A stretch of 64,000 nt of DNA from Dehalococcoidia bacterium (GTDB lineage: Bacteria; Chloroflexota; Dehalococcoidia; Lucifugimonadales; GCA-2712585): NCBI GenBank assembly GCA_965221895.1, contig CBDCSX010000002.1, positions 2,626,930 to 2,690,929 on the forward strand, given 5' to 3'. Made by a program: the position numbers and the translations under genes. Numbering within the stretch: the stretch's first letter is position 1; the number at the start of each line of letters is the position of its first letter. The notes under the pieces were generated by a model. It saw nothing but the letters and a program-made list of their open reading frames with translations. It had not been told where the DNA came from and searched no databases. This document shows, piece by piece, positions 341-34,159 of this stretch.

Positions 341-642
341 GAGCCTGTTTCAGAAGTCGGACCTCTCCGAGAACTGGGCCTTCTGGATTCCTGCTTTCGC
401 AGGAATAACGGACCTTGGGGCCACATTCCATATTCTCGCCCGGGAGGTCGTCGGAAATCGTCTTGGCATACTTGGCATAAATCATAGGTCGGACCTCTCC
501 GAGAACTGGGCCTTCTGGATTCCTGCTTTCGCAGGAATAACGGACCTTGGGGCCACATTCCATATTCTCGCCAGAGAAGTCGGCGGAAATCGTCTTGGCA
601 TACTTGGTACGAATCATGGGTGAGGACTTTTGAAACAGGCTC
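341..642. mobile_element. MITE family 1, interior type A, internally duplicated or chimeric copy
   Basis: TIRs GAGCCTGTTTCAGAAG…CTTTTGAAACAGGCTC; interior unit present twice; flanks CTTG/ACAA do not form a TSD, consistent with fusion of two copies. Confidence 0.8.
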
Positions 643-878
643 ACAAGGGTCGCCCCTACGGAGGAGGGGTACAGAAAGGCATGATGTTGGAGTGGGAGGG
701 TGGTTCGTGAACCGCCGCTACGGGGGGCAGGCTCTGCGCGGGAAAAACGGGAGGGGGCTTGGATGATGGGGGAGGGCGACGATGAGGGACGCGAGGACAA
801 AGGATGGGGAAGGACGGTTCGCGAACCGTCGCTACGGGGAGGTTGGTCGAACGGTTGAATGTAATGGGCGGCCACGAG

Positions 879-1049
879 GAGCCTGTTTCAAAAGTCTCCG
901 CGCCTCTGTCGGCGGTGAAACGTTGCGACGCCAAGCGTAACCATGCCCAATAATACTACGACATACGACAAGCAGAGACATCGTTTCCGCCCTATGTCGT
1001 TTTGGTCGAACGGGGTCAAAGCCTGGCGTGCTATTTCTGAAACAGGCTC
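879..1049. mobile_element. MITE family 1, interior type B (171 bp)
   Basis: TIRs; TSD CGAG on both sides; removal restores the hairpin GGGCGGCCACGAGGGACGCCCC. Confidence 0.9.
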
Positions 1050-1247
1050 CGAGGGACGCCCCTATGGGAGGTGAGGGAGGGGATGGGTCCCCGCATCCGC
1101 GAGGACAACGGATGGGGAAGGCCGGTTTGCGAACCGGCCCTACGGTGCAAAGTAGGCGATGGGGGATGATGGGGAAAGGCAACCACATGATGTCGCCCTT
1201 ACGCGGGGAGGGATGGGCGTCGGTTTTTTCTCCGTGGGCGGTCTTGT

Positions 1248-1263
1248 TGTCATAGTAATGACA
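1248..1263. promoter_or_regulatory. Palindromic operator candidate TGTCAT-AGTA-ATGACA upstream of the sdh promoter
   Basis: Perfect 6-4-6 inverted repeat 25 nt upstream of the -35 box. Confidence 0.45.
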
Positions 1264-1288
1264 TACGACACATTCGAGGCAGGGGAAA

Positions 1289-1317
1289 TTGACAGTGTAG
1301 GTAGGGCTTATTACAAT
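1289..1317 (+). promoter_or_regulatory. Sigma70-type promoter for the sdh operon
   Basis: TTGACA-17 nt-TACAAT. Confidence 0.7.
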
Positions 1318-1448
1318 GGGCGCTAGCCCCACTATCGTAAACCCCGTGATGGGCCAGACGTGTCCTTGGCGAGGCCGGTGGTGGAAGCTATCCAACTTGA
1401 CCTCGTGGCGGGCATGGTTGGCCCTGCGGGGAAGCGAGAGGAGGGCCC

Positions 1449-3095
1449 TTGCCTCAACATGACGTTCTAGTAGTGGGCGGCGGATTTGCCGGGCTACGGG
1501 CAGCTCTGAGCGCCCGAGCTACCGGCACTGACGTGGCGGTGCTTTCCAAGGTACATCCGATGCGGAGCCACTCGTCCGGCGCACACAGCGGGATCAACGC
1601 CGCCCTCAAGTCGGGGGACTCCTGGGAGGCCCACGCAAAGGACACTATCGCCGCGGGTGGGGACTTATCGGACCGGAGTGCGGTGGAGGTGATGTGCCAG
1701 AGCGCTGCGGTGGACGTGGTGGCGCTGGAGCACATGGGGGTTATCTTCAATCGGGACGCAGAGGGTCGAATAGACGTTACTACTTTTCCCGGTTCCTCAC
1801 AGGCCCGGACGTGCTTCGTGGGAGATTCGGCGGGGCACGTGATATTGCAGGTGCTCTACGAGCAGATAGTGCGGTCGGAAATTCGCACCTACGACGAATG
1901 GTTCGTCGCGGCGCTGCTGATGGAAGATGGGATGTGCAAGGGAGTGATTGCGCGTGACCTGAGGTCGGGAGAGCTTCATCCTTTCCACGCCAAGTCGGTT
2001 GTGATGGCGACAGGGAACCTGGGCAGTATGTACAACGGAGGCACATGCTCGTTGACGGGCACGGGCGACGGTGTGGCCATAGCGTACCGGGCGGGGGTGC
2101 CTCTCATCGACATGGAGATGGTGCAATACCACCCCACGACGCTGGGGGACAGGGGCATTCTGATTACGGAAGCGGTGCGGTCCGAGGGCGCTCACCTGGT
2201 GAACAAGAAGGGCGAGCGGTTCATGGAGCGGTACGACGCGGACGCGATGGAGATGTCGACGCGGGACGTAATAACTCGGGCGGCGCTGACTGAGGTGCGG
2301 AAGAACAGGGGGGACAAGGGCCACGTGTTTCTGGACATGCGGCACATCGACAAGGCCCGCATGAAGGACAGGCTTCAGGAAACTTTGTGGATAATGGACG
2401 ACCTGGAGGGGTTGGACCCTTCGGACGATCTGATTCCGGTGAAGCCGGGAATGCATCGACCCCTGGGCGGCATACAGATTGACACCTTTGGGGCCACAGG
2501 GCTGCCGGGCCTGTACGCTGCGGGGGAGTGCGCTTCCACGGGCGTGCACGGAGCCAACCGGCTGGGAGGCAACTCGTTGTTGGACTGTATAGTCTTCGGT
2601 CGGCGGGCCGGGGAATCGGCCAGCCGCTATGCGCGAGGGGCCACGTGGAGACCCGCGGGTTCCGACCTGGTTATGGAGCAGGAGGCGATTCTCAACGAGG
2701 TAACGGAGAAGGACCCGAACGACGATACGCCCGGGGCCATCCGGCGGGAGTTGGGCGAGGTGATGGACAAGAATGTGGGGATTTTGCGGAGTCAGAGGGG
2801 ATTGAGGAGGGCCGCCAACGCGGTGGTCAAACTGCAGGAACGTCATGCGGCGCTGGGAGTGCGGGACAAGAGCGGGACCTATAACATCGAGCTCAGGTCT
2901 TTGAAAGAGTTGGGGAATATGCTTGACGTGGCTGAGGTGATCATCGCAAGTGCGGAGGCCCGGCAAGAGAGCCGAGGATGTCACTTCAGGTCGGATTTCT
3001 CCGAGAGGGATGACGACAACTGGATGAAGCGCATCGTGGCAACGCGGTCGGGGGACGGGCCGGCGCTCGACTTCGAGCCGGTAGATGCCGGCTAG
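1449..3095 (+). CDS. sdhA: Succinate dehydrogenase/fumarate reductase flavoprotein subunit
   Basis: GGGFAG Rossmann motif, RSHS FAD-His, QYHPT, RD, GANRLGGNSL, ESRGCHFR. Confidence 0.95.
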   Translation: MPQHDVLVVGGGFAGLRAALSARATGTDVAVLSKVHPMRSHSSGAHSGINAALKSGDSWEAHAKDTIAAGGDLSDRSAVEVMCQSAAVDVVALEHMGVIFNRDAEGRIDVTTFPGSSQARTCFVGDSAGHVILQVLYEQIVRSEIRTYDEWFVAALLMEDGMCKGVIARDLRSGELHPFHAKSVVMATGNLGSMYNGGTCSLTGTGDGVAIAYRAGVPLIDMEMVQYHPTTLGDRGILITEAVRSEGAHLVNKKGERFMERYDADAMEMSTRDVITRAALTEVRKNRGDKGHVFLDMRHIDKARMKDRLQETLWIMDDLEGLDPSDDLIPVKPGMHRPLGGIQIDTFGATGLPGLYAAGECASTGVHGANRLGGNSLLDCIVFGRRAGESASRYARGATWRPAGSDLVMEQEAILNEVTEKDPNDDTPGAIRRELGEVMDKNVGILRSQRGLRRAANAVVKLQERHAALGVRDKSGTYNIELRSLKELGNMLDVAEVIIASAEARQESRGCHFRSDFSERDDDNWMKRIVATRSGDGPALDFEPVDAG

Positions 3096-3186
3096 TAAGG
3101 GCGGCGATAGCGCTAAGGATTGAACCGGTCGAGAAGTAGGCAGGGATTCAAGAAACTGCCGTCATAGTCAGGAAGGAGCCTTTAAG

Positions 3187-4155
3187 ATGGAAGTAAAGTT
3201 TGCGGTTAAGCGATACGACCCGATAACCAACGCTGGGAGTTCTACGCAGACGTACAGCGCAGAGGTTGGAGAGGGGGATACCGTTCTTGACGCGTTGCTG
3301 CAGGTACGGGACGAGCAGGACCCGACGCTGGCGTTCCGGGGGAGCTGCCGGACGGGATTTTGCGGCGATTGCACCATGACGGTCAACGGCAAGGGAGCGA
3401 TTACGTGTCGGACCAAGGTGGCGAAGGCGTGGAAGGGCGCCGAGGACGGGGCCATTGAGCTTGAGGCGTTGAAGATGAGCAAGCCGGTCAAGGATTTGGT
3501 GTATAACGCGAGGGAATTTCATTGGGATAAATTCAAGGCTGTGGAGCCGTGGGTGGACCCGGTGCCGCCGCCGCCGGAGGGAGAGCACCTGGTTCCCGGC
3601 GGTCATAGCAAGCACCTGACGGCAGCTATGCGGTGCACCCAGTGCGGTCTGTGCGACCAGGGGTGCACGGTGTTGGTGGTGGACAAGACCTTTGTGGGGC
3701 CGGCGGCTTTGACGAAGGCCTACCGCGCCGTTGCAGATGAGCGGGACAGCCGGAAGCGTCAACGGCTGGACAAGCTAAGCCTCGCCCGGGGGATGTGGGA
3801 CTGCACTCACTGCTTCGAGGCCAGTGAGCATTGTCCGAAGTATATCGAGCCGACGGACCGGATTTTCGACATGCACGACATGGCCATCAAGGCTGAGGCG
3901 GGGCCGCCCAAGGTGGTGCACCACTACAAGAGCTTCGCCGCGTCGGTGAAGGCCCACGGGTGGCTGGACGAGGGGCGGCTGGCGATTGAGACGGAGGGGT
4001 ATACGAACGTGAAGGGGCTGATGAAGCTTTTGCCCTTCGCGGTGAAGGCTGCGATGAAGGGGAAGCGTCCGATGCCGTACATGCTGCACAAGAAGAGACC
4101 CGGCCACGAGCATATCAAGAGGATCTTTGAAAAGTGGGAATCTCAAGCGGAATGA
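3187..4155 (+). CDS. sdhB: Succinate dehydrogenase/fumarate reductase iron-sulfur subunit
   Basis: SCRTGFCGDC 2Fe-2S motif, CTQCGLCDQGC, CTHCFEASEHCP. Confidence 0.95.
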   Translation: MEVKFAVKRYDPITNAGSSTQTYSAEVGEGDTVLDALLQVRDEQDPTLAFRGSCRTGFCGDCTMTVNGKGAITCRTKVAKAWKGAEDGAIELEALKMSKPVKDLVYNAREFHWDKFKAVEPWVDPVPPPPEGEHLVPGGHSKHLTAAMRCTQCGLCDQGCTVLVVDKTFVGPAALTKAYRAVADERDSRKRQRLDKLSLARGMWDCTHCFEASEHCPKYIEPTDRIFDMHDMAIKAEAGPPKVVHHYKSFAASVKAHGWLDEGRLAIETEGYTNVKGLMKLLPFAVKAAMKGKRPMPYMLHKKRPGHEHIKRIFEKWESQAE

Positions 4156-4206
4156 GCCGCTAATTGAATCCGACAACACTATGACAACACAATCAGGAGG
4201 CGCTCC

Positions 4207-5139
4207 ATGATCACCAACGGCCAAGTGAAGCAGGAAGTGAAGACGAAATACGCATTTTACCCTGGCTGCGTGTCGCGGGGCGGCTGTCCGGAACTGTATG
4301 AAGCCGTGACAAAGGTGTCGGAGAAGCTGGGGCTGGAATTGGACGATGATGTGTTGGAAAGCGCGGGGTGCACCGGCGCCGGTGTGTTGAGCAAGGAAGT
4401 ATCGGACCCCATCAACGCTCGAACCTTCGCCCTGGCCGAAAGAGCAGGTCTGCCGATAATGACCATCTGCAGCACCTGCCAAGGGATTATGATGCAGGCG
4501 AACCACCGGCTGAAGGACGAAGAATACCGGTCGATGATCAACCGCAGGTTCCTGGTTGAGGAGGGGTTGACGTACAAGGGGACGACGGACATCCGTCACA
4601 TGCTCTGGGCTATTGTGGAGGACTTTGGGCTGGACAAGCTTAAGGATCTGGTGGTTCGTCCACTGAACGGCCTGCCTGTGGCCCAGTTCTACGGGTGCTA
4701 CATGAAGCGGCCACCGGAATTGATGGTGCCGAAGGAGTTCGCCAAGACTCGGAAGACGGCCCTAGAGGACGTTATTGAGGCGCTGGGCGGGAAGGCGGTC
4801 AAGAGTTCCGGTCGTGGGAAGTGCTGCGGCTTTCCCATTCTGACGTCAAACGAGGCTAATTCCCTTTCAATGTGCGGCGACCACATATTGGACGCCAAAG
4901 CCAAGGGCGCCAGGGCTATGGTTACTCCGTGCCCGCTGTGCCACCTGGAGTTGGACGGGAAGCAGGCGGATGCCGCCGCCCACAGGGGGGAGGAGATCAA
5001 TATGCCGGTGTTCCATTTGCCTCAGCTGGTGGGGCTGGCGTTGGGTTTCAGTTCCAAGGAGATGAACTTGCAGCGGCATCTGGTGTCCACGAAGCCCATT
5101 GAAGACGAGTTGGAGTTGGGCGTTGAGGTGAAGGCGTAG
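4207..5139 (+). CDS. sdhE: CCG-domain (HdrB/SdhE-like) membrane-associated subunit
   Basis: FYPGC…CSTC and FYGC…CCG…PCPLC repeats; directly downstream of sdhB. Confidence 0.85.
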   Translation: MITNGQVKQEVKTKYAFYPGCVSRGGCPELYEAVTKVSEKLGLELDDDVLESAGCTGAGVLSKEVSDPINARTFALAERAGLPIMTICSTCQGIMMQANHRLKDEEYRSMINRRFLVEEGLTYKGTTDIRHMLWAIVEDFGLDKLKDLVVRPLNGLPVAQFYGCYMKRPPELMVPKEFAKTRKTALEDVIEALGGKAVKSSGRGKCCGFPILTSNEANSLSMCGDHILDAKAKGARAMVTPCPLCHLELDGKQADAAAHRGEEINMPVFHLPQLVGLALGFSSKEMNLQRHLVSTKPIEDELELGVEVKA

Positions 5140-5199
5140 GCTTCTGTTTCCCCAGCCGTCCGGCTGGGGAGCGGGGACGATTCCTTCAGCGGATAGCTT

Positions 5200-5673
5200 A
5201 TGGCTAAAAGGTATTGGCTCTTCAAGTCTGAACCTTCCGCCTACTCGTTCGACGATCTCGTTGAAGACGGGGTGGCCGAGTGGGATGGGGTGCGAAATTA
5301 TCAGGCGCGGAATTTGCTGCGGGATGACATCAAGGAGGGGGACGAGGCGCTGTTTTATCACAGCAGTACGAAGCCCCTGGCGGTGATTGGAACCGCCGTT
5401 GTAGTGAAGGGCGGATACCCGGATTTCACGGCGTGGGACCCGGGCTCGGAGCACCCGGACCCGAAGAGCACGCCGGAGAATCCCCTCTGGTTCATGGTTG
5501 ACATAAGGGCGACCTCTCGATTCCTCCGTCCGGTGACGCGGGACATGCTGAAGTCGGCGCCGGAATTGAAGGATATGATGGTGCTTCGCAGGGGGGCGCG
5601 GTTGTCCGTTCAGCCGGTGACGAAGGGGGAGTGGGACTCGGTGGTGCGGATGGGGACGGCAATCGCCGACTGA
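5200..5673 (+). CDS. EVE domain protein
   Basis: YWLFKSEP…WDGVRNYQARN…FYHS…RLSVQPV. Confidence 0.9.
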   Translation: MAKRYWLFKSEPSAYSFDDLVEDGVAEWDGVRNYQARNLLRDDIKEGDEALFYHSSTKPLAVIGTAVVVKGGYPDFTAWDPGSEHPDPKSTPENPLWFMVDIRATSRFLRPVTRDMLKSAPELKDMMVLRRGARLSVQPVTKGEWDSVVRMGTAIAD

Positions 5674-5710
5674 AGGGGAGACCAGTCTTGGTGGGGCCAG
5701 TAGCGACAAG

Positions 5711-5773
5711 GGGCAGGTTTGAAACCTGCCCCTACGTGTGAAGGAGCGTTACGGAGGGGTGGAGGGCGAGGGA
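5711..5773 (+). repeat. Left 63-bp direct repeat bounding the TIR cassette
   Basis: 62/63 identical to 7941-8003; begins with the REP hairpin GGGCAGGTTTGAAACCTGCCCCTAC. Confidence 0.9.
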
Positions 5774-5933
5774 AAGATGGATTCCCGCCCCCGTCTTCAC
5801 GGGGGCAGGCTCTTCGCGGGACGCACCACATAGGCGTTCTGCCCTCGCGCAATCTCAGGTCTATTCTGGAATTGGGGAAGATATGATTATCCAATGACTA
5901 CGGAGATTGAAATGAAAGGTCATCGGTAGGAAA

Positions 5934-6497
5934 ATGGCTATACGGAGGAGAATCTTCTTTAGTTTCCACTATAAGCTGGACAATTGGCGGGCGTCCGAGG
6001 TTAGGAATATGGGCGTGGTCGAGGGCAACACGCCTGTTTCCGACAATACTTGGGAGACCGTCACGCGAGGCGGCGACGCTGCTATTAAGAGGTGGATTGA
6101 CGCCCAGATGTATGGAAAGCCAAGCGTCATTGTCCTGATAGGCGGATACACGTCGAGGCGCAAGTGGGTTAGATACGAGATAGAGAAAGCTTGGAACGAT
6201 GGGAGAGGGTTGGTGGGAATCCACGTTCACAACCTTCGGGACAGCGATCGAAAGCAAACTGTGAAAGGTGCGAATCCCTTCTATAGATTCAGCGTAAACG
6301 GAAAAAGGATGTCCAGCATAGTGAACGCCTTCGACCCTCCATACAAGCGGAGCACCAGCGTATACAACAACATAGCTGCCAACATAGCCGTCTGGGTTGA
6401 GGATGCTATCCGGATCCGGAATAACTATGGAGCGGGCGTTCATCAAGTCGCAAAACGGGTTCGTCAAGAAGCTTCACCAAGGCTCGCTCAAGCCTGA
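5934..6497 (+). CDS. TIR-domain protein (Thoeris ThsB / DUF1863-like); natural stop appears lost
   Basis: RRIFFSFHY…VIVLIG…RKWVRYEI with catalytic Glu; after the expected end (IRNNY) it reads 22 extra codons into the next gene. Confidence 0.85.
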   Translation: MAIRRRIFFSFHYKLDNWRASEVRNMGVVEGNTPVSDNTWETVTRGGDAAIKRWIDAQMYGKPSVIVLIGGYTSRRKWVRYEIEKAWNDGRGLVGIHVHNLRDSDRKQTVKGANPFYRFSVNGKRMSSIVNAFDPPYKRSTSVYNNIAANIAVWVEDAIRIRNNYGAGVHQVAKRVRQEASPRLAQA

Positions 6498-6663
6498 CGA
6501 TGTTTACAAGGTGGCTCCAACGGGCATGGGGCTTCTCGCCGTAGTGCGCTGTTTGGGTTCCGTCTCCATTTGGCTGTTCTATCCCTTGGTTGCCCTCACC
6601 ATTTTCCTCGCTTGGCTGCTCATAATTCCGTCCGACGCTCCGGGCAACAAAGGGCTGTCTTGA
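6427..6663 (+). pseudogene. C-terminal fragment of a small transmembrane protein (probable TIR-system effector)
   Basis: ERAF…CLGSVSIWLFYPLVALTIFLAWLLII hydrophobic helix; resembles from memory the C-half of TM proteins encoded beside DUF1863 TIRs; N-half absent. Confidence 0.5.
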
Positions 6664-7230
6664 CCGTAAAAAAAGATACCCAGACACAAGGTGTTCATTA
6701 GCTGCCACGATGAAGATCGCGAATACAAGAGACGCTTCCGCCAGATGATGGGGGATTCGGTTGTGGACGTTTCGGTGGACGAAGATGACATTGACGACAC
6801 CGGGATGGCAACGGAGACGATTAGTCGGGAGATACGCGACGAGTTCATTCGTCAGTCTTCCGTAACCATAGTACTCCTAGGCCCATGCACTTGGCAGCGA
6901 ATGCACGTGGACTTCGAGATTCATTTCAGTATTCGAGAAACCGACTTCAACCGAAGGTGCGGTCTTTTGGGCATCTTGTTGCCTGAACACCCGGACTACG
7001 GATCGGAAGAATACTGCGATAGATTGATACCTGCCAGACTCCCGGATAACATCGGTGGTAAAAACGCGTACGCAGAGCTTTACGATTGGCCACGGAAGCA
7101 TCCGGGAAGACGAGACAAAGTTCGTCAATGGATAGAAGAAGCGTTCAGTCGGCGAATGAAGATTGTCCCTGACAGCGGCAGGCCGTTGTTGCAAGGTAAT
7201 ATAGGTGGCAGTTGTTTAGATGGGTGGTAG
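6660..7230 (+). CDS. Second TIR-domain protein (DUF1863-like); 5' end frameshifted at an A7 tract or uses an alternative start
   Basis: RHKVFISCH…VTIVLLGPCTWQRMHVDFEI…RCGLLGILLP; TTG at 6660 overlaps the upstream TGA but is one base out of frame across A7 (6668-6674); main ORF 6691-7230. Confidence 0.8.
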
Positions 7231-7256
7231 CGTAAGCCTATGCAACGGGCGTTGCC

Positions 7257-7913
7257 AAATACAAGCCGTACTCCGCCTACAAGCCCTCCAGCGTTCCTTG
7301 GCTGGGCGAGGTGCCGTTCCATTGCGAGGTGAAGTGGCTCAAGGGTCACGTAACAAACGTTATTGACCTCAGTAGACCTCCACGCCACGACGATATTTCC
7401 CTTGCCCTTGAGCATGTCGAAAGCTGGACGGGGAGGTTCACCGCTGCTGGCAATGGGGTTGGATTCGATAGCCAGATGAAACGGTTTGGGGATGGAGACG
7501 TACTCTTCGGCAAGTTGAGGCCCTACCTGGCTAAAGATACTCGACCATGCCGGAATGGGCTTTGCGTAGGCGAATTTTGGTGCTCCGCCGCCGCAATAGG
7601 AATCTGTCACTAGGGTTTCTTAAGCAGTTTCTACGTTCCAAACCAGCTATTCATGTAATTGATGCATCGACTTTTGGGGACCAAATGCCCCGTGCGGGTT
7701 GGAAATTCATCGGTACATACGCCTCATCTCCCGCCACTTGCTGAGCAGACCGCCATTGTGGGGTACCTGGACAAGGCTACCGCTGCCATCGTCCGAGCCC
7801 GCCGCCAAATCGAATTTCGACAGGATTACCGAACCTGCCTCATCTCCGACGTGGTCACGGGTAAGTTGTACGTTCGGCAGGCGATGGTTGATTCTTCGTT
7901 GAGTTCGGAATGA
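7257..7913 (+). pseudogene. hsdS: Type I restriction-modification specificity subunit remnant, frameshifted, about half length
   Basis: KPYSAYKPSSVPWLGEVP, GDVLFGKLRPYL, PPLAEQTAIV..YLD, LISDVVTGK spread over different frames; no start codon. Confidence 0.8.
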
Positions 7914-7940
7914 CGTGCAACGATAGAATGTCTGGGGAGA

Positions 7941-8003
7941 GGGCAGGTTTGAAACCTGCCCCTACGTGTGAAAGAGCGTTACGGAGGGGTGGAGGGCGAG
8001 GGA
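7941..8003 (+). repeat. Right 63-bp direct repeat bounding the TIR cassette
   Basis: 62/63 identical to 5711-5773. Confidence 0.9.
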
Positions 8004-8099
8004 GGATTTCCGCCCCCGCAGGTGCGAGAATGGTAGAGGGGTTGGGGAGATGGATTCCAGTCTTCGTCTTCATGGGGGCAGGCTCTATGAGGGATGCCC

Positions 8100-9518
8100 C
8101 TACGTGGGTGGTTTGGGGGGGCGGTTCCTTCCTAAGTCGTCCAGCTTCTGACGAAGGAGGTTGCGGCGTTGCCTGGGGGTAAGTCGTCTCCAGAACCTTG
8201 TGCTGGGGCCGGAGGGTGGTTTGGTGAATACGCCGGGCTCCTGTGGTGATGGGGTTGTTGGGCTGGGCGCATCGTCGGGAGATTCCTCCACTCTTTCTAT
8301 GGGCCGACGCAAGGCTGGCATGAAGATGGCTATGAGCAGGAGAAGGACCAGCCCCCCTATCGCGTTGGCGGTGAGGGCGACGCTCATGCCGAAGATGGAC
8401 GCGAGTGCGCCAATTTCGACGTTGCCCATCTGACCGGTGCTGATGGCCAAACCCTGGGCGCCAAATACGCGGCTGTGGAAGTTGGTTGGGCTGCTGGTGA
8501 GGAGGATGCCGCTCTGCATTGTGGAGAAACCGCACTGGAAGATGCCCATGGCGATGAGGATGAAGAAGGAGAGGAGGAACCAGGGGGAAAGGGCGAATGC
8601 GAGGAGGAAGATGGCCACGCCGAGGCAGCCGCCCAGGAAGATTCTGCCGCTGATTTTGATGCGGCTTGCCAGCAATCCGATGAGGAGGGAGCCGAAAACG
8701 AAGCCTATGCCGTCGGCGGCGGCCAGGAGGCCCATGAGGCCAGCGCCGACGTGTAGGTGATCGGCGGCAATGACGGGGATGAATAGGTGGTATTGGAATA
8801 ATACGTTCATAACCACACTGGCGGTCAGCACGCCGGCAATGGCAGGGGTGGAATAAGCATATTTCAGTCCTTCGCCGATGCTTTTGATGACGGGACGGCG
8901 GGCAAGGGACGTAACCACGGGAGGGGTCTTCAGCAGGAATATGCAGACGAAGCCAAAAAGGTAGAGGCCGGTCAGGAGAACGTAGACGCTGATGGCGGTG
9001 CCCGATATCAGGAGGAGGACTCCAATGACGAGGGGGCCGACGATTCTGCCGGCGCTGAATCCCAACTGCTCCAAGGAGATGGCCTGCACGAGGTTGTCTT
9101 GGCCGACAACGTGGAACATGAGGGCCCTGCGGCTGGTGTTGTCGAAGGCCCGGCAGGCCCCTCGGATGGCGGCGGCAATGAAAAGGAAGTAGGGATCGAC
9201 GGACCCAATTAGGAGGATGACCAGCACACTAGCGACAACAGCCAAGCTGACTAGGTTGGAGGCCATGATGATGTGTCGCCGGTCCTTCCGGTCGCCGATG
9301 GCACCGGCGAGGAGGGTGAAGGCGAACATGGAGACGGTGTGGCTGAGGCCCAGCAGAGCCACCTGCCACGGAGAGCCGGTGAGCTGATGGATGAACCAAC
9401 CCATGACGAGGAGCTCGGACATGTCTCCGCTGGTGGAGATGCTGCCGTTGCTCAATAGAAACTGGAAGTTCCGGTTTCTTATGAGGTGGAAGAGGGGTTT
9501 TTTGATTCTGGGACGCAC
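8100..9518 (-). CDS. MFS transporter (DHA3/H+ antiporter-like)
   Basis: About 12 hydrophobic segments, GAIGDRKDRR motif A; Pro-rich tail running into the REP region. Confidence 0.9.
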   Translation of the reverse strand: MRPRIKKPLFHLIRNRNFQFLLSNGSISTSGDMSELLVMGWFIHQLTGSPWQVALLGLSHTVSMFAFTLLAGAIGDRKDRRHIIMASNLVSLAVVASVLVILLIGSVDPYFLFIAAAIRGACRAFDNTSRRALMFHVVGQDNLVQAISLEQLGFSAGRIVGPLVIGVLLLISGTAISVYVLLTGLYLFGFVCIFLLKTPPVVTSLARRPVIKSIGEGLKYAYSTPAIAGVLTASVVMNVLFQYHLFIPVIAADHLHVGAGLMGLLAAADGIGFVFGSLLIGLLASRIKISGRIFLGGCLGVAIFLLAFALSPWFLLSFFILIAMGIFQCGFSTMQSGILLTSSPTNFHSRVFGAQGLAISTGQMGNVEIGALASIFGMSVALTANAIGGLVLLLLIAIFMPALRRPIERVEESPDDAPSPTTPSPQEPGVFTKPPSGPSTRFWRRLTPRQRRNLLRQKLDDLGRNRPPKPPT

Positions 9519-9852
9519 GGTTTCTCGTTGGGACGGAGGATGTGGGGCGTGGGTAGAACGTGATAGCTATACATTGTATTGTGATGTAGAGGGGAAACCA
9601 TAGGGTTGGGGCTGCGGACTTGGGCGGGATGGGGGCTGGTGTGGTGGGCGACCACGAGGGAGGGCAGGTTTGAAACCTGCCCCTACGGGCGATATGACGG
9701 ATTGTTTCCGAGGCTGGCGCCACCCTACGGGTTGTTAGCAAGGTGGGTTTCAACAGCATGGAGACAGTCTATTTTCAGAGTAATGATATTTGGCACGTCC
9801 GGGAATGATGGAATCGGGTTGACCTTGTGGGCCTACGTAGAGGGTGGAGACG

Positions 9853-9894
9853 TTGACGTGGGTGTGGATGGGCCGTAAAGGTTGAGTAAGACTC
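9853..9894 (+). promoter_or_regulatory. Degenerate copy of the TA promoter/operator
   Basis: TTGACG -35 and palindrome GAGTAAGACTC, matching 12273-12315. Confidence 0.55.
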
Positions 9895-9913
9895 GGTAAC
9901 GGGGGGGCGGTAG

Positions 9914-10070
9914 ATGCCAAGAACGACGAAGATGATTACGTTCTCGCTGGCCCCGGAGATGGTGGAGAGGGTGGACCGGGTGACGAGACGGCAGGGGAGA
10001 CGGCGGAGAGGGTTCCTGCGAGAGTCAGTGCGGGCAACGGAAGCGGCGGTGGGGGAACCAACGCGGTGTC
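9914..10070 (+). pseudogene. Truncated CopG/ribbon-helix-helix antitoxin (copy 1)
   Basis: MPRTTKMITFSLAPEMVERVD… similar to 12334-12594, then breaks down. Confidence 0.75.
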
Positions 10071-10799
10071 GTGATGGTATATCGTCTCTTTTCTGAACAC
10101 AGTTTGGCGGAGTTGTACGACGCGTTCTGCGCGGGAAGGAAGGACTTCGGGTTCTATCTTCCACTGGTGATGTCGGCGAGAAGCGTACTTGATGTGGGCT
10201 GCGGTACGGGTGAGTTACTTCGCTTGGCGAGGGAAGCTGGACACACCGGCCGACTGTGCGGGCTCGATCCTGCCAATGCGATGCTTGATGAGTCACGGAA
10301 GCGGTCAGACATAGAGTGGGTGCTCGGTGACCTAACTTCGGTGGACTGGTGTCGAGAGTTCGATCTCGTCGTAATGACTGGTCATGCGTTTCAAGTGTTC
10401 GTCGATGACGACCAACTGAGAGAGTCGCTGACCGCAATACGGTCGGCACTTACGGGGGCCGGACGCTTCGTGTTCGAGACACGCAATCCACTCGCCAGGG
10501 AATGGCGGAACTGGACTCCTGGCAACGCGGCAGAGGTTGTGCACAACGGCCGTGTCGTGCAAATGGCACACCAGGTGGAGACCCACGTTGTCGGCGACAT
10601 TGTCTCTTTCACCGCTACATTCACAAGTACAAGCTGGAACCGGCCTCAGATCAGTCGAAGCGCGCTGAGATTCCTTGGGACAGAATTGCTGTCCTCCTTC
10701 CTTTCTGGGGCGGGCTTGGCAATCGAGGAACTGTTCGGAGATTGAGACCTGCAGGAACTTACGGACACTAGTCCGGAGATCATTACCGTAGCACGTTGA
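10071..10799 (+). pseudogene. Class I SAM-dependent methyltransferase with a premature stop near the C-terminus
   Basis: VLDVGCGTG motif I; TGA at 10743-10745 in FGD*D (expected FGDWD), followed in frame by DLQELTDTSPEIITVAR*. Confidence 0.75.
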
Positions 10800-10893
10800 G
10801 CCTGAGCCGGGAGTCGGCAACCTCGGCGGACAGTCTGCTAATGAACTTGGTCAGTGTGGAAGAGGTAGTGAACAGGCCAGAAACGGGGGATAG

Positions 10894-11180
10894 ATGCCAA
10901 GAAGCACAAAGAAGATTGCGTTCTCGCTGTCCACGGAGATGGCGGAGCGGGTGGACCAGGTGACGAGACGGCAGGGGAGATCCAGGAGTGGGTTTCTGCG
11001 GGAGGGTGTGTTGCGATACATTGAGGAGTGTGAGTGAAGACGGCTCTCCAGCATGGAGAACAGAGGGTGAGGGAGAAGAGGATTGGTTCCGAGAACGTGG
11101 CTGACTTGGTGGAAGAATACCTGGCTGAGGTTGGCGACCTCCTACGGGCATGAGAGTTGTTTTGGGCACGAACGTTATGG
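10894..11180 (+). pseudogene. CopG antitoxin with nonsense codon plus the start of a PIN toxin (copy 2)
   Basis: MPRSTKKIAFSL…EECE* (TGG to TGA relative to the intact copy); ATGAGAGTTGTTTTGGGCACGAACG resembles the PIN start at 12591. Confidence 0.8.
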
Positions 11181-11284
11181 GGATGCTCCCTTTGACAAAC
11201 GTTGATTCCTCAGCGTAGGGTAAAATTCCCATAGTTTTAAGAGTAGCTAACATTCTACCGGACGTTGATGGCCGGGTGGATAAA

Positions 11285-11443
11285 ATGGAGAAAACGCAAG
11301 ACGGGGATTACGACCTCATATTGCGGCTGGAGACTAACCACAGCGAATTGATTGCCATCGTCAAAAGCGTGGATAGAATTCTATCCGCAGTCCAACATGA
11401 GTTGACGCATCTACGGCTGTTGCACGAGAGGATAAAAAGATGA
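11285..11443 (+). CDS. Small hypothetical protein (52 aa)
   Basis: Open ATG-to-TGA frame with ATGA overlap onto the next gene; absent from the ORF track because of length. Confidence 0.45.
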   Translation: MEKTQDGDYDLILRLETNHSELIAIVKSVDRILSAVQHELTHLRLLHERIKR

Positions 11444-11865: not shown

Positions 11866-11959
11866 TAGCTGATGACAATTACCTGATTTCCAACTGAGAC
11901 ACTGCCCAGACTTGAGACCGGGCTTGGTAATTGCTAGTTGGCCAATAGAGGAGTTTGGC

Positions 11960-14129: not shown

Positions 14130-14650
14130 GATTTGGGGAGGACTGGGGAGGGCTGGATTCTCGCCTTCGCAGGAATAACGGAGGGGAGAATCGTCCTTAC
14201 GGGAGAGAATGTTGTCGGACACGGGGTTCATCCCCATACCAACCTTCCCCCCTTGAGGGGGAGGGGATTTGTTGGCGTGCTACTGCAACGAGATTCCTCG
14301 GCTGCGCTTCGCTGCGTTCGAAATGACATTTGGGTAGAGGGTCAAGACGGGCGACCACAAGGAGCCTGTTTCATAAGTCCTCACCCATGATATATGCCAA
14401 GCATTTTAAGACGCTTTTCGACGACTTCCCTAGGGAGAGCATGGAATATGGCCCCAAGGTTCGTCCTTTCTACGAAAGCAGGAATCCAGAAGGCCCAATT
14501 CTCGGAGAGATCCGACTTATGAAACATGCTCCAAGGGTCGCCCCTACGAGGGAAGGTGGCAGGTGGCAGGTGGTGTCCATGTATCGGAAGAGGGCGCCCA
14601 CGAGGGACGCCCCGACGGGGGCAAGGGCAGGTTTGAAACCTGCCTCTACG
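14130..14650. repeat. REP-like cluster
   Basis: Several hairpin types, including GGGCAGGTTTGAAACCTGCC and GATTCTCGCCTTCGCAGGAAT. Confidence 0.85.
14362..14531. mobile_element. MITE family 1, type A (170 bp)
   Basis: TIRs; TSD CAAG; empty site GGGCGACCACAAGGGTCGCCCCTAC. Confidence 0.92.
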
Positions 14651-23171: not shown

Positions 23172-23663
23172 ATGGGTCTGTTGGATAGGTTGCCGGGGAT
23201 GGGGATTCTACGGGGGTTGGGTCGGATTGGGGTTTACCGGGTTCGAGGCCGGAGTATGGAGCCGCGGTTTTTCGAGGGTGAGTTGCTTCTGGTCTGGGGA
23301 GTCGGCGTCGGCGAAAGGGGGCTGAGACGGGGCGACGTGGTGGTGTTTCGGCACCCCAGCGTGGATGGGCGGTTGATGTTGAAGCGGGTGGCGGCGTTGC
23401 CGGGAGGGCGGGTTGGGGTGGTTGGGGGTCGGGTGATTGTGGAGGGCGGGGCGACGTTGGAGGCGGGTGGCGGCGTCGGCAAAGGCGACGAGGGGATGTG
23501 GGAGATGGAGTGGGTGTTGGGTGAGGACGAGTGGTTTGTGGTGGGGGATAACCTTGAGTCGAGCCTGGACAGTCGTCGGTTGGGGCCGATTCGGGGGTCG
23601 TGGATCAGGGGGCGGGTGTGGTTTCGGTGTTGGCCGTTGTTCAGGGGGAAGGGTGCTGGGTGA
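23172..23663 (+). CDS. sodX: Ni-SOD maturation protease (S26 family)
   Basis: VRGRSMEP…GDVVVF…LKRV…GDN…SLDSRRLG; divergent from sodN. Confidence 0.8.
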   Translation: MGLLDRLPGMGILRGLGRIGVYRVRGRSMEPRFFEGELLLVWGVGVGERGLRRGDVVVFRHPSVDGRLMLKRVAALPGGRVGVVGGRVIVEGGATLEAGGGVGKGDEGMWEMEWVLGEDEWFVVGDNLESSLDSRRLGPIRGSWIRGRVWFRCWPLFRGKGAG

Positions 23664-23710
23664 TGGGAGGTGGGCGGTTTGCGAACCGCCCACACGGGGG
23701 AGGCGACGTT

Positions 23711-23830
23711 TTATTCGTTTCGGGGGGATTCGTTCTTTTCTGTGGTGCAAACGAAGGGTGGATTGGGGGAAGGCGTGGGGATGGGTTTTTTCATGGAGGA
23801 ATGGTAGCAGGGGAGGGGGAGTTTCGGCAA
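23711..23830 (-). repeat. Promoter-plus-hairpin repeat, copy 2 of 3
   Basis: TTGCCG-18-TACCAT on the minus strand plus the conserved hairpin block. Confidence 0.7.
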
Positions 23831-24136
23831 TGGGAGGATAGCAGTGTGGGTGGGGGATGGGTCCCCGCATCCGCGAGGACAACGGGAGTGGGAGGGCGGA
23901 TCTCTAATCGCCTCTACGTGGGAGTCGCCGAACACGACGGGAGGGGAAAGGTGGTTCCCGCACCGCCCCTACGAGGGAGTCGCCGAACACGATGAAGACG
24001 GGCGTCCACGAGGGGTGGTCCTACGGAGACGGCAGGTTGGACGTGACGTGGATAGGGAAGAGGAAGGTCGGTTCGCGTACCCGCCCCTACGGTTGGTCGG
24101 TAGTTGGGAAGTTTGGAGGGCAAGGGCAGGTTTGAA

Positions 24137-24306
24137 GAGCCTGTTTCATAAGTCCTCACCCATGATTTATGCCAAGTATGCCAAGACGATTTCCGACGAC
24201 TTCCCAGGCGAGAATATGGAATATGGCCCCAAGGTCCGTCATTCCTGCGAAAGCAGGAATCCAGAAGGCCCAATTCTCGGAGAGATCCGACTTCTGAAAC
24301 AGGCTC
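24137..24306. mobile_element. MITE family 1, type A (170 bp)
   Basis: TSD TGAA; same flanks without the element at about 24500-24535. Confidence 0.93.
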
Positions 24307-24645
24307 TGAAACCTGCCCCTACGGAGAAGGGGTTGAGTGTAGGGGGTGTGGGGAAGATGGATTCCCGCCCCCGTCTTCACGGGGGCAGGATATTCGCGGG
24401 AAAAACGGAGGGAGGGATGGGTCCCCGCATCCGCGAGGACAACGGAAGGGGGAGGGCGGTTCGCGAACCGCCCCTACGGTTGGTCGGTAGTTGGGAAGTT
24501 TGGAGGGCAAGGGCGGGTTTGAAACCTGCCCCTACGGAGAAGGGGTTGAGTGTAGGGGGTGTGGTAAAGATGGATTCAAGCCCCCGTCTTCACGGGGGTA
24601 GGCTGTTCGCGGGAACAGCGGAGGGAGGGATGGGTCCCCGCATCC

Positions 24646-24768
24646 GGAGACCTTTGCATAACTATCGAATCGCATTCAGATGGCGGTGTAGGACGACTCT
24701 TGACATAGCTAAATCATGGGATTCTGGATTCCGGCTTTCGCCGGAATGACGGTTATGCAAAGGTCTCC
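24646..24768. mobile_element. MITE family 2 (123 bp)
   Basis: TIRs GGAGACCTTTGCATAAC / GTTATGCAAAGGTCTCC; TSD ATCC in the loop of GTCCCCGCATCCGCGAGGAC. Confidence 0.92.
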
Positions 24769-24857
24769 ATCCGCGAGGACAACGGGAGGGGGATGGCGGT
24801 TCTCTAATCGCCTCTACGAGGGAGTCGCCGAACACGACGTAGACGGGCAACCACAAG

Positions 24858-25027
24858 GAGCCTGTTTCAAAAGTCCCCGCGCGTCTGTCCGCGGCAAAAG
24901 GGCGTGACGACAGGCGTAACCATATCCACAAATGCTGCGATATACGACTGTAGATATGCTGTTTCGGCCTTATGCCGTTGTGAACGAACGAGCTCAATGA
25001 CTTGGTTGCTACTTCTGAAACAGGCTC
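24858..25027. mobile_element. MITE family 1, type C (170 bp)
   Basis: TIRs; TSD CAAG; empty alleles at about 25710-25736 and 25830-25858. Confidence 0.92.
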
Positions 25028-25154
25028 CAAGGGTTGCCCCTACGGGGGGAGGGAGGGGTTCCCGCATGCGCGAGAACGACGGGAGGGGAAAGGCGGTTCG
25101 CGAGCTGCCCCTACGTGGGAATCACCGAACGCGACGTAGGCGGGCAACCACAAG

Positions 25155-25325
25155 GAGCCTGTTTCAAAAGTCCCCGTGCCTCTGTCCGCGGCAAAAGGGC
25201 GTGACGACAGGCGTAACCATATCCACAAATGCTGCGATATACGACTAGCAGATATGCTGTTTCCGCCTTATGCCGTTGTGAACGAGCGAGCTCAATGACT
25301 TGGTTGCTACTTCTGAAACAGGCTC
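25155..25325. mobile_element. MITE family 1, type C (171 bp)
   Basis: TIRs; TSD CAAG. Confidence 0.92.
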
Positions 25326-25401
25326 CAAGAGTTGCCCCTACGGAGATAGGGATGGGTCCCTGCATCCGCGAGGACAACGGGAGGGGGAGGGCAGGTTTCA
25401 G

Positions 25402-25572
25402 GAGCCTGTTTCAAAAGTCTCCGCGCCTCTGTCGGCGGTGAAACGTTGCGACGCCAAGCGTAACCATGCCCAATAATACTACTACATACGACAAGCAGAG
25501 ACATCGTTTCCGCCCTATGTCGTTTTGGTCGAACGGGGTCAAAGCCTGGCGTGCTATTTCTGAAACAGGCTC
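25402..25572. mobile_element. MITE family 1, type B (171 bp)
   Basis: Nearly identical to 879-1049; sits in a GGGCAGGTTT/AAACCTGCCC hairpin; TSD imperfect. Confidence 0.88.
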
Positions 25573-25890
25573 TTGAAACCTGCCCCTACGGAGAAGGGGT
25601 TGAGTGTAGGGGGTGTGGGAAAGATGGGTCCCCGCATGCGCGAGTACACGGGGAGGGGACGGGCGGATTCTGAGTTGCTCCTACGAGGGAGTCGCCGAAC
25701 ACGATGTAGGCGGGCAACCACAAGGGTTGCCCTTACGGAGGGAGGGATGGGTCCCCGCATCCGCGATGACACGGGGAGGGGTAGCTGGCGCGAGTCGTCC
25801 CTACGTGGGAATCGGCGGACACGACGTAGGCGGGCAACCACAAGGGTTGTGCCCCTACGGAGACGGCATGTTGGACGTGACGGGCGTGAA

Positions 25891-28650
<2,760 letters not shown>

Positions 28651-28901
28651 GGGTGGTGAAACTCCTAGGAATGCGAATTTACTCATGGAATTGTAACCGA
28701 AACAGGGGGAATAGCATAGATGGGAGGGGTTGGGGGTGGATTCGCGCACCGCCCCTACGGGAAGAGGGGTACGGAGGGGACAACGAGGGAAGCAGGTGGT
28801 GTAAAGGGAGGGGGAAGATGGGTCCCCGCCCCCGTTCTTCACGAGGGCAGGCTATTCGCGAGGACAACGGAAGGAGACGCGGTGTGTGATAAAATATCGA
28901 C

Positions 28902-29348
28902 GTGACTGAATCGGAGCTAATTTACAGCGAAGAGCACCGGAGCACCTTCCTCTCCCATTTCATGTGGTATTTGGGGCTGCTTCTGTTGGTGGCGGCTGTT
29001 CTCTCCCTTGCCTTTGGCTCAGGTTCCTGGACGAACAGGTCTTTCGACGTGGTGGTATTGCTGGCTCTTGGGCTGCTGTTGGCGGGAGGACACTGGCTGA
29101 TGGCGCCGCGTAGGTATGAGGTCTACGAAGGGGGGCTGGCGGTGGTGTACGGGCGACCGCGGGTTAGGCTGGTGAGGTATCCGGAGATTTCGAACATCGA
29201 GGTGATATCCCACCCACTAGGCACGGAGATACGCATACATCTGACCCAGGGGGGAGTGCTGGGGCTTCATCCACTGCATCCGAGGCAGTTTCACGAGAAT
29301 CTGGAGTCGGCGTGGCAGCGGAATAGAGGGTCTTGGTCAGCGATGTGA
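28902..29348 (+). CDS. Hypothetical membrane protein (2 TM plus a PH-like soluble domain)
   Basis: Two hydrophobic helices followed by a beta-rich domain. Confidence 0.6.
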   Translation: MTESELIYSEEHRSTFLSHFMWYLGLLLLVAAVLSLAFGSGSWTNRSFDVVVLLALGLLLAGGHWLMAPRRYEVYEGGLAVVYGRPRVRLVRYPEISNIEVISHPLGTEIRIHLTQGGVLGLHPLHPRQFHENLESAWQRNRGSWSAM

Positions 29349-29422
29349 ACCCTGCGCTAACGTTCGGCTGACGGACGGGCACCACGAGGGACGCCCCTAC
29401 GGAAGAAGAGACGGGGATGTAG

Positions 29423-31644
<2,222 letters not shown>

Positions 31645-31648
<4 letters not shown>

Positions 31649-32115
31649 AGCTGGACGCTGCCGAGGACGACGAGTATGACGCCTGAAACGGCAAAAACGG
31701 TCCCAAGGACGACGCGAGGCGTGACGCGCTCCAGTTGCTGTAAGAAGAGGTGGGTCAGGGCGAGGGTCACCAGGGGGTTGAGGGAAGCCAGGGGGGTGAC
31801 GACGGCGATGGGGGCGCGGGTGACAGCCAAGGTCAAGAGGGTTACGGCGCAGCCTGAGGTGATGCCAGCAGCCATGAAGAAGCCCACATATTTGCGGGGT
31901 AAGCCTGACTTGAAGTTGTAGCCGCGGTGAAATAGCAGAAAGACCAGGGCGGCGCCTATGAGCAGGGAGAATGAGGTGAATACGACGGGAGGAATGTTTT
32001 CTTCCGTTATGGCCTTCTTGGCGATGACGCTGCTGCCTCCGTACAGAGCGGCGGCTGCGAGGGCAAGGGCGAACCCGGCGAGGATTCTTCTCTGTCCGAC
32101 GAGATTAAGCTGCAT
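31645..32115 (-). CDS. Single-domain EamA/DMT family transporter
   Basis: Five hydrophobic segments, APIAVVTPL motif; likely ATG at 32115. Confidence 0.8.
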
Positions 32116-32545
32116 CGGAACGCTTCTCGCTGACAATGAGGACCATGCCTAGGACGGAGACAAGGATGCCAAGGCCGATTAGGAGGTTGGGCCTTTCGCC
32201 GAGGGCGATGAGGGCAAGAAGGGTGGCGAAGATGGGGCTAACGGCGAGCATAGGGGAGGAGCGGGAGGCTCCGGCCAGACTGATGGCGGTGTAGTTGAAG
32301 AGGCGGGCCAGGGGGAAGGTGATGATGGCGAAGAAGAGGAACCAGAGGAAGGCTCGCGGTGTCAGGTCCAGGATGTCGCGGAAGTGGAGAGCAATGGACA
32401 GGGCAAAGGTGAGGAGGAAGCCGGTGCTTAGTGATAGGAAGACGCCAAAAGTCGGGGGGATGCGCTGGAGGCCCAAGCGAGCGAGGACGGCGCTGGAGCC
32501 GAAGCCTATGGCGGCGAGAAGGCCAAAAACAATGGCTAGGGACAT
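32105..32545 (-). CDS. Single-domain EamA/DMT family transporter
   Basis: Five hydrophobic segments, GASRSSP…LGER motif; overlaps the next gene by 11 nt. Confidence 0.8.
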   Translation of the reverse strand: MSLAIVFGLLAAIGFGSSAVLARLGLQRIPPTFGVFLSLSTGFLLTFALSIALHFRDILDLTPRAFLWFLFFAIITFPLARLFNYTAISLAGASRSSPMLAVSPIFATLLALIALGERPNLLIGLGILVSVLGMVLIVSEKRSDAA

Positions 32546-32609
32546 TTTTTCCTCTGCTGCGCGGGGTTCTTCGGGGCTATCCCAGTCTGGGGACGGTGGG
32601 GCATGGCTG

Positions 32610-33383
32610 CTACTTTTTTGCCAAGCTCTGGATGATGGACCCGAAGATGGACAGGCCGTCGGCGCCGCCCATAATTTCCTCGCAGCAACGTTCGGGGTGG
32701 GGCATCATGCCGAGGACGTTGCCGGCCCGGTTGGTGATGCCGGCGATGTTGTTAAGGGAGCCGTTGGGGTTGGAGGCGGGGGTGGCTTTGCCCTCGGGGG
32801 TTGTGTAGCGAAAGAGGACTCTGCCTTCGGCTTCCAGGCTTTCGAGGGTTGCGTTGTCGGCGTAGTAGCTGCCCTCCCCGTGGGAGATGGGGATGCGAAG
32901 GACTTGCCTCTGAGTGCAGGAGCGGGTGAAGGGGGTGTCGTGTCGCTCGACCCGCAGGTGGGTCCACTGGCATCGGAATTGGAGGTGGTTGTTGCGCATG
33001 AGGACGCCGGGGAGGAGCCGGGCCTCGCAGAGCATCTGGAAGCCGTTGCAGATGCCCAACACGAGACCGCCGTTGGCGGCGAAGCGGGCTACGGCGGACA
33101 TGATTGGGGAGAGGCGGGCGATGGCCCCGGGGCGGAGGTAATCGCCGTAGGAGAAGCCGCCGGGAAGGATTATGCAATCTATGTCTGAGAATGAGTCGTC
33201 CTTGTGCCAGAGGTAGCGGGCCTGTTGGCCCAGGACTGCGCCGAGGGCGTGGTGGCAATCGCCGTCGCTCCAGGAGCCGGGGAAGACGACTATGCCGAAG
33301 TTTTTTTTGTTTCCCTGGGGGAGGGCGGTTGTAGAACTGCCCCTACGGGGGAGAATGTTGTCGGACACGGGACTCACCCCCAT
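32610..33383 (-). CDS. purQ: FGAM synthase glutaminase subunit PurQ; true start uncertain (conserved part begins near 33300)
   Basis: [41 protein letters not shown]. Confidence 0.95.
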
Positions 33384-33671
33384 CCTAACCTTCCCCCATC
33401 AAGGGGGAAGGGACTTTGGGGGGTGGGTAGGGTTGGGGGATGGGGTTAGGCATCAGCGGAAGGGAGGAGGGGATCGATTCCCGCCTTCGGGGGAATAACG
33501 GAGGCGTGGGTGACGAGATTCCTCGAGGGACTCGGAATGACAGGTGGGGGTAGGAAGGAGGGGATGGGTTCCCGCCTTCGCGGGAACAACGGAATGGGAA
33601 CGGGAATAATGGGGGTGGGAGGGGGGGTGGGGCATGGGGGGACGTGGAATGACGGAGCGGGCGGCCACAAG

Positions 33672-33841
33672 GAGCCTGTTTCAGAAGTCGGACCTCTCCG
33701 AGAATTGGGCCTTCTGGATTCCTGCTTTCGCAGGAATGACGGACCTTGGGGCCATATTCCATGCTCTCCCTCGGGAAGTCGTCGAAAAGCGTCTTAAAAT
33801 GCTTGGCATATATCATGGGTGAGGACTTATGAAACAGGCTC
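33672..33841. mobile_element. MITE family 1, type A (170 bp), opposite orientation to 14362
   Basis: TIRs; TSD CAAG. Confidence 0.92.
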
Positions 33842-33989
33842 CAAGGGCCGCCCCTACGGGGAATGGTTGGGGGTAGGGACATTGAGCGTGGGATGGCGAG
33901 ATTCCTCGAGGGACTTGGGATGACATGGGGCAGGGGACTCTGGATGACAGGCAAAAAGGGGCGGAATGAAGAGGGAGGGCGGCCACAAG

Positions 33990-34159
33990 GAGCCTGTTTC
34001 AGAAGTCGGACCTCTCCGAGAATTGGGCCTTCTGGATTCCTGCTGTCGCAGGAATGACGGACCTTGGGGCCATATTCCATATTCTCGCCCGGGAGGTCGT
34101 CGGAAATCGTCTTGGCATACTTGGCATAAATCATAGGTGAGGACTTATGAAACAGGCTC
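33990..34159. mobile_element. MITE family 1, type A (170 bp)
   Basis: TIRs; TSD CAAG. Confidence 0.92.

Follow-up and report, generated by a model that had tools for sequence, protein, structure and literature searches.

What leads a family of short non-coding elements to enter a bacterial genome time and again at the very centre of its repetitive extragenic palindromic (REP) sequences? The question is raised by a 64,000-nucleotide stretch of DNA from a Dehalococcoidia bacterium, referred to here as the window, which spans positions 2626930-2690929 of contig C2 in a 3.61-Mb assembly (59% G+C, two contigs, 97% complete) and carries nine such elements with the features of MITEs (miniature inverted-repeat transposable elements). 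We consider it quite probable that these MITEs are mobilised in trans by a lineage of IS1182-family transposases that picks REP apexes.

With the terminal inverted repeat (TIR) GAGCCTGTTTCANAAG as a query and at most 2 mismatches allowed, the window yielded 18 matches, which form nine inward-facing pairs, against 0.13 expected from shuffled sequences. Eight of the nine elements are 170-171 bp long and the ninth (341-642) measures 302 bp (Table 1). Seven are bordered by a clean target site duplication (TSD), namely CAAG in five cases and CGAG and TGAA in one case each, the elements at 341 and 25402 being without one. Removal of an element together with one TSD regenerates a 20/21-nt palindrome with 7-8 of the 8 outer stem pairs matched, and two of the targets have an empty paralogue in the window: the reconstructed 24137 site is identical to 24467-24583 in 111 of 116 positions, and the reconstructed 24858 site to about 25680-25781 in about 89 of 101 positions, with homology that reaches well past the palindrome in both. 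An earlier note, made from the letters of the window alone, had listed the nine elements with their positions and seven TSDs, proposed that excision gives back a REP hairpin with the TSD as its loop, and pointed to two matching empty sites; all of this is borne out, both empty sites being real palindromes. The flanks of an element are mutually inverted repeats, as they would be if the REP arms were the outer part of long TIRs and belonged to the element instead of its target. We regard this possibility as practically negligible: arm and TIR are separated by a direct repeat of 4 bp, one MITE type can be flanked by different REP classes (described below), REPs that are empty but have homologous outer flanks are present, and the GTAG head of the REP is present on one side only.

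In the whole genome the family comprises 39 copies, all of them flanked by REP half-sites (39/39), and with a length of 170-171 bp, no coding capacity, multiple copies and TIRs it corresponds to what is understood by a MITE family. A clean TSD, equal to the hairpin loop, was found in 30 copies (29 of 4 bp and one of 5 bp); read in the orientation of the REP, it is CAAG in 21, CGAG in 3, CGCG in 2, CGGG in 1, TGAA in 2 and TTCAA in 1. The genome-wide TIR search and the resulting table of TSDs and flanks revealed neither a majority of copies outside REP loops nor a disappearance of the TSDs upon comparison of all copies, and the proposal of REPs as landing pads that are entered at the centre of the loop is supported on the genomic scale. 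Three types of interior (A, B1 and B2) were distinguished, of which B1 and B2 are substantially different, and only the ~18-bp ends (GAGCCTGTTTCANAAGTC) are common to all; the 16-18-bp TIRs are nearly invariant, whereas the interiors are 71-100% alike. Six B1 copies are 99-100% identical, each at a different REP and with unrelated outer flanks, which indicates recent transpositions and contradicts segmental copying as the route to filled sites. In a tandem array at C2:2237971-2241515, each of four units that are 89-96% identical has a MITE at the same REP; these MITEs differ in type and orientation (A-, A+, B1-, A+), which indicates that the four paralogous REPs were hit independently. The tandem units (~1.1 kb each, within C2:2237108-2241705) each code for the N-terminal part of a Nudix-like (NudF-type) protein, as judged by eye. 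The orientation of the MITEs with respect to the REP's GTAG side shows a weak bias among the 37 typed copies (A 15:5, B 13:4, p ~0.04-0.05 each).

Table 1. MITEs and empty target palindromes in the window (positions are those of the window)
Feature	Position	Strand	Length (bp)	TSD	Target or sequence
MITE type A, partial dimer, head-to-tail	341..642	.	302	none
MITE type B1	879..1049	.	171	CGAG	REP GGGCGGCC-ACGAG-GGACGCCC-CTAT
MITE type A	14362..14531	.	170	CAAG	REP GGGCGACC-ACAAG-GGTCGCCC-CTAC
MITE type A	24137..24306	.	170	TGAA	class-3 REP GGGCAGGTT-TGA-AACCTGCCC-CTAC
Empty paralogue of 24137 target	24511..24531	+			GGGCGGGTTTGAAACCTGCCC; ~50 bp homologous flank either side
MITE type B2	24858..25027	.	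170	CAAG	REP GGGCAACC-ACAAG-GGTTGCCC-CTAC
MITE type B2	25155..25325	.	171	CAAG	REP GGGCAACC-ACAAG-AGTTGCCC-CTAC
MITE type B1	25402..25572	.	171	no clean TSD	class-3 REP, flanks gggcaggttTCAG / TTGAaacctgccc
Empty paralogue of 24858 target	25712..25732	+			GGGCAACCACAAGGGTTGCCC
MITE type A, opposite orientation	33672..33841	.	170	CAAG	REP GGGCGGCC-ACAAG-GGCCGCCC-CTAC
MITE type A, opposite orientation	33990..34159	.	170	CAAG	REP GGGCGGCC-ACAAG-GGCCGCCT-CTAC

MITEs are located in REPs also in the same-genus genomes G007, G008 and G010. In G008 and G010 no TIR of this family was found within ~1.5 kb of the orthologue of the gene at the 14362 site; in the cross-genus comparison of orthologous sites the MITE is absent, but the intergenic REP clusters themselves are not conserved. 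The predominance of CAAG (21/30 clean TSDs) and the intergenic, presumably insertion-tolerant location of the REPs would also agree with a retention bias, i.e. with random or CAAG-preferring insertion followed by survival only in neutral REP loops. This we find hardly credible, as every copy is positioned with single-base precision (chance p ~1e-115 even with 12% of the genome tolerant), the recent, near-identical B1 copies are all at REP apexes too, and the loops CGCG, CGGG and TGAA are also used.

The IS1182 family comprises insertion sequences (ISs) of 1.3-1.95 kb with TIRs and a single open reading frame (ORF). The search for a full-length IS with the ends of the MITEs was successful only at the level of the order, where a pattern scan (the sole route by which partners were located) identified 9 autonomous copies of 1678 bp with a 515-aa transposase in G084 and 5 copies of 1681 bp with a 522-aa transposase in G206. 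The forty nearest relatives contained no full-length element with the TTT-type TIR, and the top 80 protein relatives among genome contigs were all of the TCT type, without a TTT-TIR partner. The G084 and G206 elements have GAGCCTGTTTCATAAGTC ends, the terminal 18 bp of which are identical to those of the MITEs, one ORF each, and the TIRs GAGCCTGTTTCATAAG / GAGCCTGTTTCA(A/G)ATG, and they fall within the size range of the IS1182 family. Their predicted transposases belong to this family, with scores above the curated cut-off of 270 for NF033551 (NCBIfam "IS1182 family": G084, 360.7 bits; G206, 366 bits); thus the resemblance of the ends to IS5/IS1182-type DDE elements, stated in the earlier note, is corroborated as regards IS1182 by partners with the same 18-bp ends (361-366 bits). 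The autonomous element with matching ends that a MITE family requires would accordingly be represented in the same-order genomes G084 and G206, and not in this genome. Most of the G084 and G206 copies are inserted at the apexes of GTAG-headed REPs, with a TSD of 4-5 bp that matches the loop (TGGAA, ACGAG, CTCG). One G084 copy (L117) occupies a non-REP hairpin, GAAGGTCGGCT-TTAGG-AGGCGGCCTTC, with the loop again duplicated. In G165 there are MITEs, 172 bp long, whose left end is the same.

The target palindromes consist of a GTAG head (CTAC when read from the opposite strand) and a 20/21-nt G+C-rich palindrome, and they were assigned to three classes: class 1, GGGCGNCC-ACAAG/ACGAG-GGNCGCCC; class 2, GGGCGGTT-CGCG-AACCGCCC, a perfect 20-mer; and class 3, GGGCRGGTT-TGA-AACCYGCCC. 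GGGC...GCCC-CTAC is common to all of them, and what the earlier note took for several different REP families are variants of one GTAG-headed superfamily. In addition to the 39 filled sites, 89 empty GTAG-headed palindromes were counted; the REP sites in the 3.6 Mb number about 126. The genome encodes a single REP-associated tyrosine transposase (RAYT)-type Y1 transposase, a 171-aa ORF at about C2:1870780-1871295 (PF01797: 27.7 bits, cut-off 23; NF047646: 77.2 bits, just below the cut-off of 80, E=1e-21), with two class-2 REPs directly after its stop codon and an IS630-like element on its 5' side. GTAG REPs have already been reported in Chloroflexi (PMC3733652), and the GTAG-type REP/RAYT systems described by Nunvar (2010, PMC2817692) and Di Nocera (2013, PMC3733652) share with the present REPs the GTAG head, the 20-21-nt G+C-rich palindrome and the RAYT-adjacent copies. 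The targets are ordinary RAYT-type REPs; they differ from those systems in that they are of interest here as a target and not as the element, and in that their number (~126 sites) is modest.

Occupancy differs greatly between the classes, with 26 filled and 13 empty sites in class 1, 4 filled and 52 empty in class 2, and 4 filled and 22 empty in class 3 (class 1 vs class 2: Fisher p=6.6e-10). The TSD always adjoins the 8-nt GTAG-proximal arm (in 26/26 copies of class 1 and in both clean copies of class 3), and in the 21-nt REPs the odd loop base remains unduplicated on the distal side. Such a fixed 8-nt distance, together with the presence in every target of the GTAG head that RAYTs recognise and of a RAYT gene in the genome, might point to recruitment, in which the RAYT or another REP-binding host protein guides the transposase. 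We consider recruitment very unlikely as the explanation, since the class bias tracks neither the abundance of the REPs nor the class that flanks the RAYT gene (class 2), and the non-REP hairpin used in G084 is at odds with it.

The earlier note had proposed that the targets share no sequence and that hairpin/cruciform structure or a REP-bound protein is recognised in place of a sequence. Hairpins with a perfect 8-bp stem and a 3-5-nt loop occur 569 times in the genome, and only ~65 of them are GTAG-REP-like; none of the 39 copies (0/39) was found in the ~500 others. The abundant hairpin families CTTCCCCC-N5-GGGGGAAG, ATTCCGGC-N4-GCCGGAAT and GTCCCCGC-ATCC-GCGAGGAC are never used by the 39-copy family. 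Pure structure recognition, according to which any extruded cruciform or hairpin would serve irrespective of its sequence, can draw on the use of three REP classes with differing stems and loops, on the L117 insertion in G084, and on the relatives IS1272/TnSha1, whose targets have no common primary sequence (PMC5678879, PMC4923244). Yet all 39 insertions are in GTAG-REPs, and the perfect 20-nt palindrome of class 2, the most abundant REP, is mostly empty while class 1 is mostly filled, so that we judge this explanation unlikely. The common GGGC...GCCC-CTAC, the class bias and the ~500 unused hairpins thus speak against the claim of the earlier note. The palindrome is clearly involved in targeting, but structure alone is insufficient for the data, and from these patterns we infer that the hairpin apex is probably recognised in combination with sequence or context specific to the REP.

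A second MITE family (123 bp, 45 copies genome-wide, TIR GGAGACCTTTGCATAAC; in the window at 24646-24768 and 54894-55016) was identified at the apex of one of the hairpin families avoided by the first, GTCCCCGC-NNNN-GCGAGGAC, within the repeat GGGTCCCCGC-NNNN-GCGAGGACAAC. Its TSDs are of 4 bp and vary freely (ATCC, GAAT, GGAT, ATGC, ACAC, CTCC and others), and no full-length copy of it was found in the genome. The two MITE families insert at different palindromes; thus, each has its own hairpin family.

A natural control is provided by a sister lineage of IS1182 elements, common in other Dehalococcoidia, whose TIR (GAGCCTGTCTCAGAAG) differs in one base and whose transposase is 66-67% identical at the protein level; the G040 representative, the only element run against Pfam, contains the domains DUF772, DDE_Tnp_1_6 and DDE_Tnp_1. 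The TSDs of this lineage are A/T-rich, 4 bp long (AATT, AGTA, TACT and others) and adjoin a GAAAAGTTC motif. Its copies, none of which is in a GTAG-REP, often lie within another repeat, CCTCCCAGCGAAAAGTTCGCA/NNNN/CAGTACAC..GGCCCACC. Four MITEs of the sister lineage are present in the genome analysed here, with interiors homologous to type B, and none of them (0/4) is in a REP; one is located in precisely this other repeat. Homologous interiors thus occur at different targets, which indicates that target choice follows the lineage of ends and transposase and not the MITE interior. We tentatively entertain, as a rather doubtful extension, a combined code of hairpin apex and REP identity (GGGC stem, GTAG head or REP-bound RAYT) that was re-set between the sister lineages, which are 33% diverged. 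As a separate observation, in many species (L033-L112) and at C2:496352 the sister lineage inserts recurrently at GAAAAGTTCGCA/NNNN/CAGTACAC in a conserved ~45-nt repeat, and elsewhere it is located beside a GAAAAGTTC-like motif ~6 bp from the cut.

The process that we propose for the 39-copy family would start with an IS1182-family DDE transposase that moves the MITEs in trans and, within REP palindromes of the RAYT type with their GTAG head, selects the apex. There, cutting around the tip of the hairpin with a stagger of 4 bp (in some cases 5) would lead to duplication of the loop as the TSD, with one stem arm on each side of the element. Target choice would need a hairpin-forming palindrome, as known for IS1272, in addition to REP-specific sequence or context, for which the GGGC/GCCC stem, the GTAG head, a preferred C-purine-N-G loop and a bound protein are candidates. 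The transposase itself may have been lost, or it may be supplied by another replicon, for instance one missing from the 97%-complete assembly, or by another member of the population.

Several observations weigh against this proposal. Nine of the 39 copies are without a clean TSD: in four of them the left and right halves come from different REP classes, probably owing to recombination between MITEs, two have a mutated TSD or end, and three are odd, including the element at 25402. In the 302-bp element at 341-642 the REP half on the left (gggcggttCTTG) is class-2-like and that on the right (aCAAGggtcgcccctacgg) belongs to class 1, which suggests an origin by recombination between neighbouring copies; this dimer is without the two abutting TIRs. 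A convincing hairpin is missing at one of the G084 copies (L116). The chemistry or the geometry of insertion differs from that of IS1272, the only relative that has been studied. A tblastn search found no cognate transposase in the window or anywhere in the 3.6-Mb assembly, which extends the statement of the earlier note that the window holds no transposase gene, and mobilisation in trans is thus what we infer for a genome that carries the MITEs alone. Finally, the relative weights of structure and sequence are inseparable from sequence data alone.

Targeting of hairpins has been published for IS1272/TnSha1 of staphylococci, which belong to the IS1182 family (PMC5678879, PMC4923244), and Siguier et al. 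(2015) are cited there for some IS1182 members that target palindromes. These elements resemble the present ones in the use of inverted-repeat/hairpin targets and in repeated independent hits. IS1272, however, deletes part or all of the stem-loop and generates no TSD, whereas here both stem arms are kept and the loop is duplicated (4-5 bp), so that the stem-loop-replacing behaviour of IS1272 is absent; moreover, its targets have no common sequence, while those described here are confined to one REP superfamily. Duplication of the loop corresponds to a mode drawn only as the hypothetical 'pathway c' in PMC5678879. Insertion specifically inside REP palindromes, with REPs as landing pads, was described for IS1397/ISKpn1 (IS3), ISPpu9/ISPpu10/IS621 (IS110), ISRm22 (IS4), ISRm5 (IS256) and ISNm1106 (IS5) (Tobes and Pareja 2006, PMC1525189), a report that mentions neither IS1182 nor MITEs. 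Those ISs are autonomous, belong to other transposase families and reside in Proteobacteria, whereas here non-autonomous MITEs of Dehalococcoidia (Chloroflexota) are concerned, with autonomous partners only in other genomes; IS1397/ISKpn1 insert into REP loops in a similar manner, but they are IS3-family elements, so the MITEs with their IS1182-family partner are not members of that group. The word 'unusual', chosen in the earlier note, was therefore an overstatement, as both hairpin targeting and REP targeting by IS families had been published.

The present case links these two published phenomena, IS1182 hairpin targeting and REPs as IS landing pads, and carries both over to non-autonomous elements and into the Dehalococcoidia. 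In addition, it provides a comparative set for the analysis of target choice: transposases of 66-67% identity that do or do not target REPs, homologous MITEs one TIR base apart with different targets, and three REP classes with very different occupancy. If a re-targetable combined code were true, it would offer, together with the second MITE family, a tractable natural system for how DDE transposases gain hairpin-specific integration. For annotation, the MITEs and REPs account for a large part of the intergenic DNA that is dense in repeats in this genome, and what looks like a "full-length" copy can turn out to be an artefact of nesting.

Such an artefact is the only long TIR pair of the genome (1408 bp, C2:2245233-2246640), which was rejected as an autonomous parent because an unrelated 1217-bp IS5-family element is nested at TAAG in what is otherwise a type-A MITE. 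The IS5-family element (TIR GGAACACTCTGAACAAG) has ~11 other copies, all outside REPs. At the conserved LFYN/LSDP junction, where the ~11 other copies are uninterrupted, the transposase gene of the nested copy is split by a G+C-rich palindrome of ~20 nt (CCTGCCCTCGCGAAGGCGGG). At C1:732229-732432 the tblastn search came upon what remains of a related element (45 aa). A distant resident IS1182-family element (6 copies, ~1635 bp, 28% protein identity, ends CTGAGAGCCTGTGAGCAAAAG / GAGCCTGTGAGCAAAAG) is unlikely as the mobiliser, as its ends match in only 12 of 18 positions and a different repeat harbours its copies. At least 4 of these copies lie between the halves of that other repeat (GTCATT / CGAAGCGGAGTCGAGGAATCTC), one copy (C2:2693846-2695480) is located 2.9 kb beyond the end of the window, and the copy at C1:253737 has a 459-aa open frame.

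The GC skew of the genome is strongly regional, with up to +0.2 over 200 kb that include the window, -0.15 in other blocks and values near 0 elsewhere; the skewed blocks comprise the whole window, C2 2.5-2.7 Mb, 1.0-1.35 Mb and 2.2-2.3 Mb, and C1 0.1-0.3 Mb. Both REPs and MITEs cluster in the skewed blocks, and the orientation of the REPs tracks the sign of the local skew.

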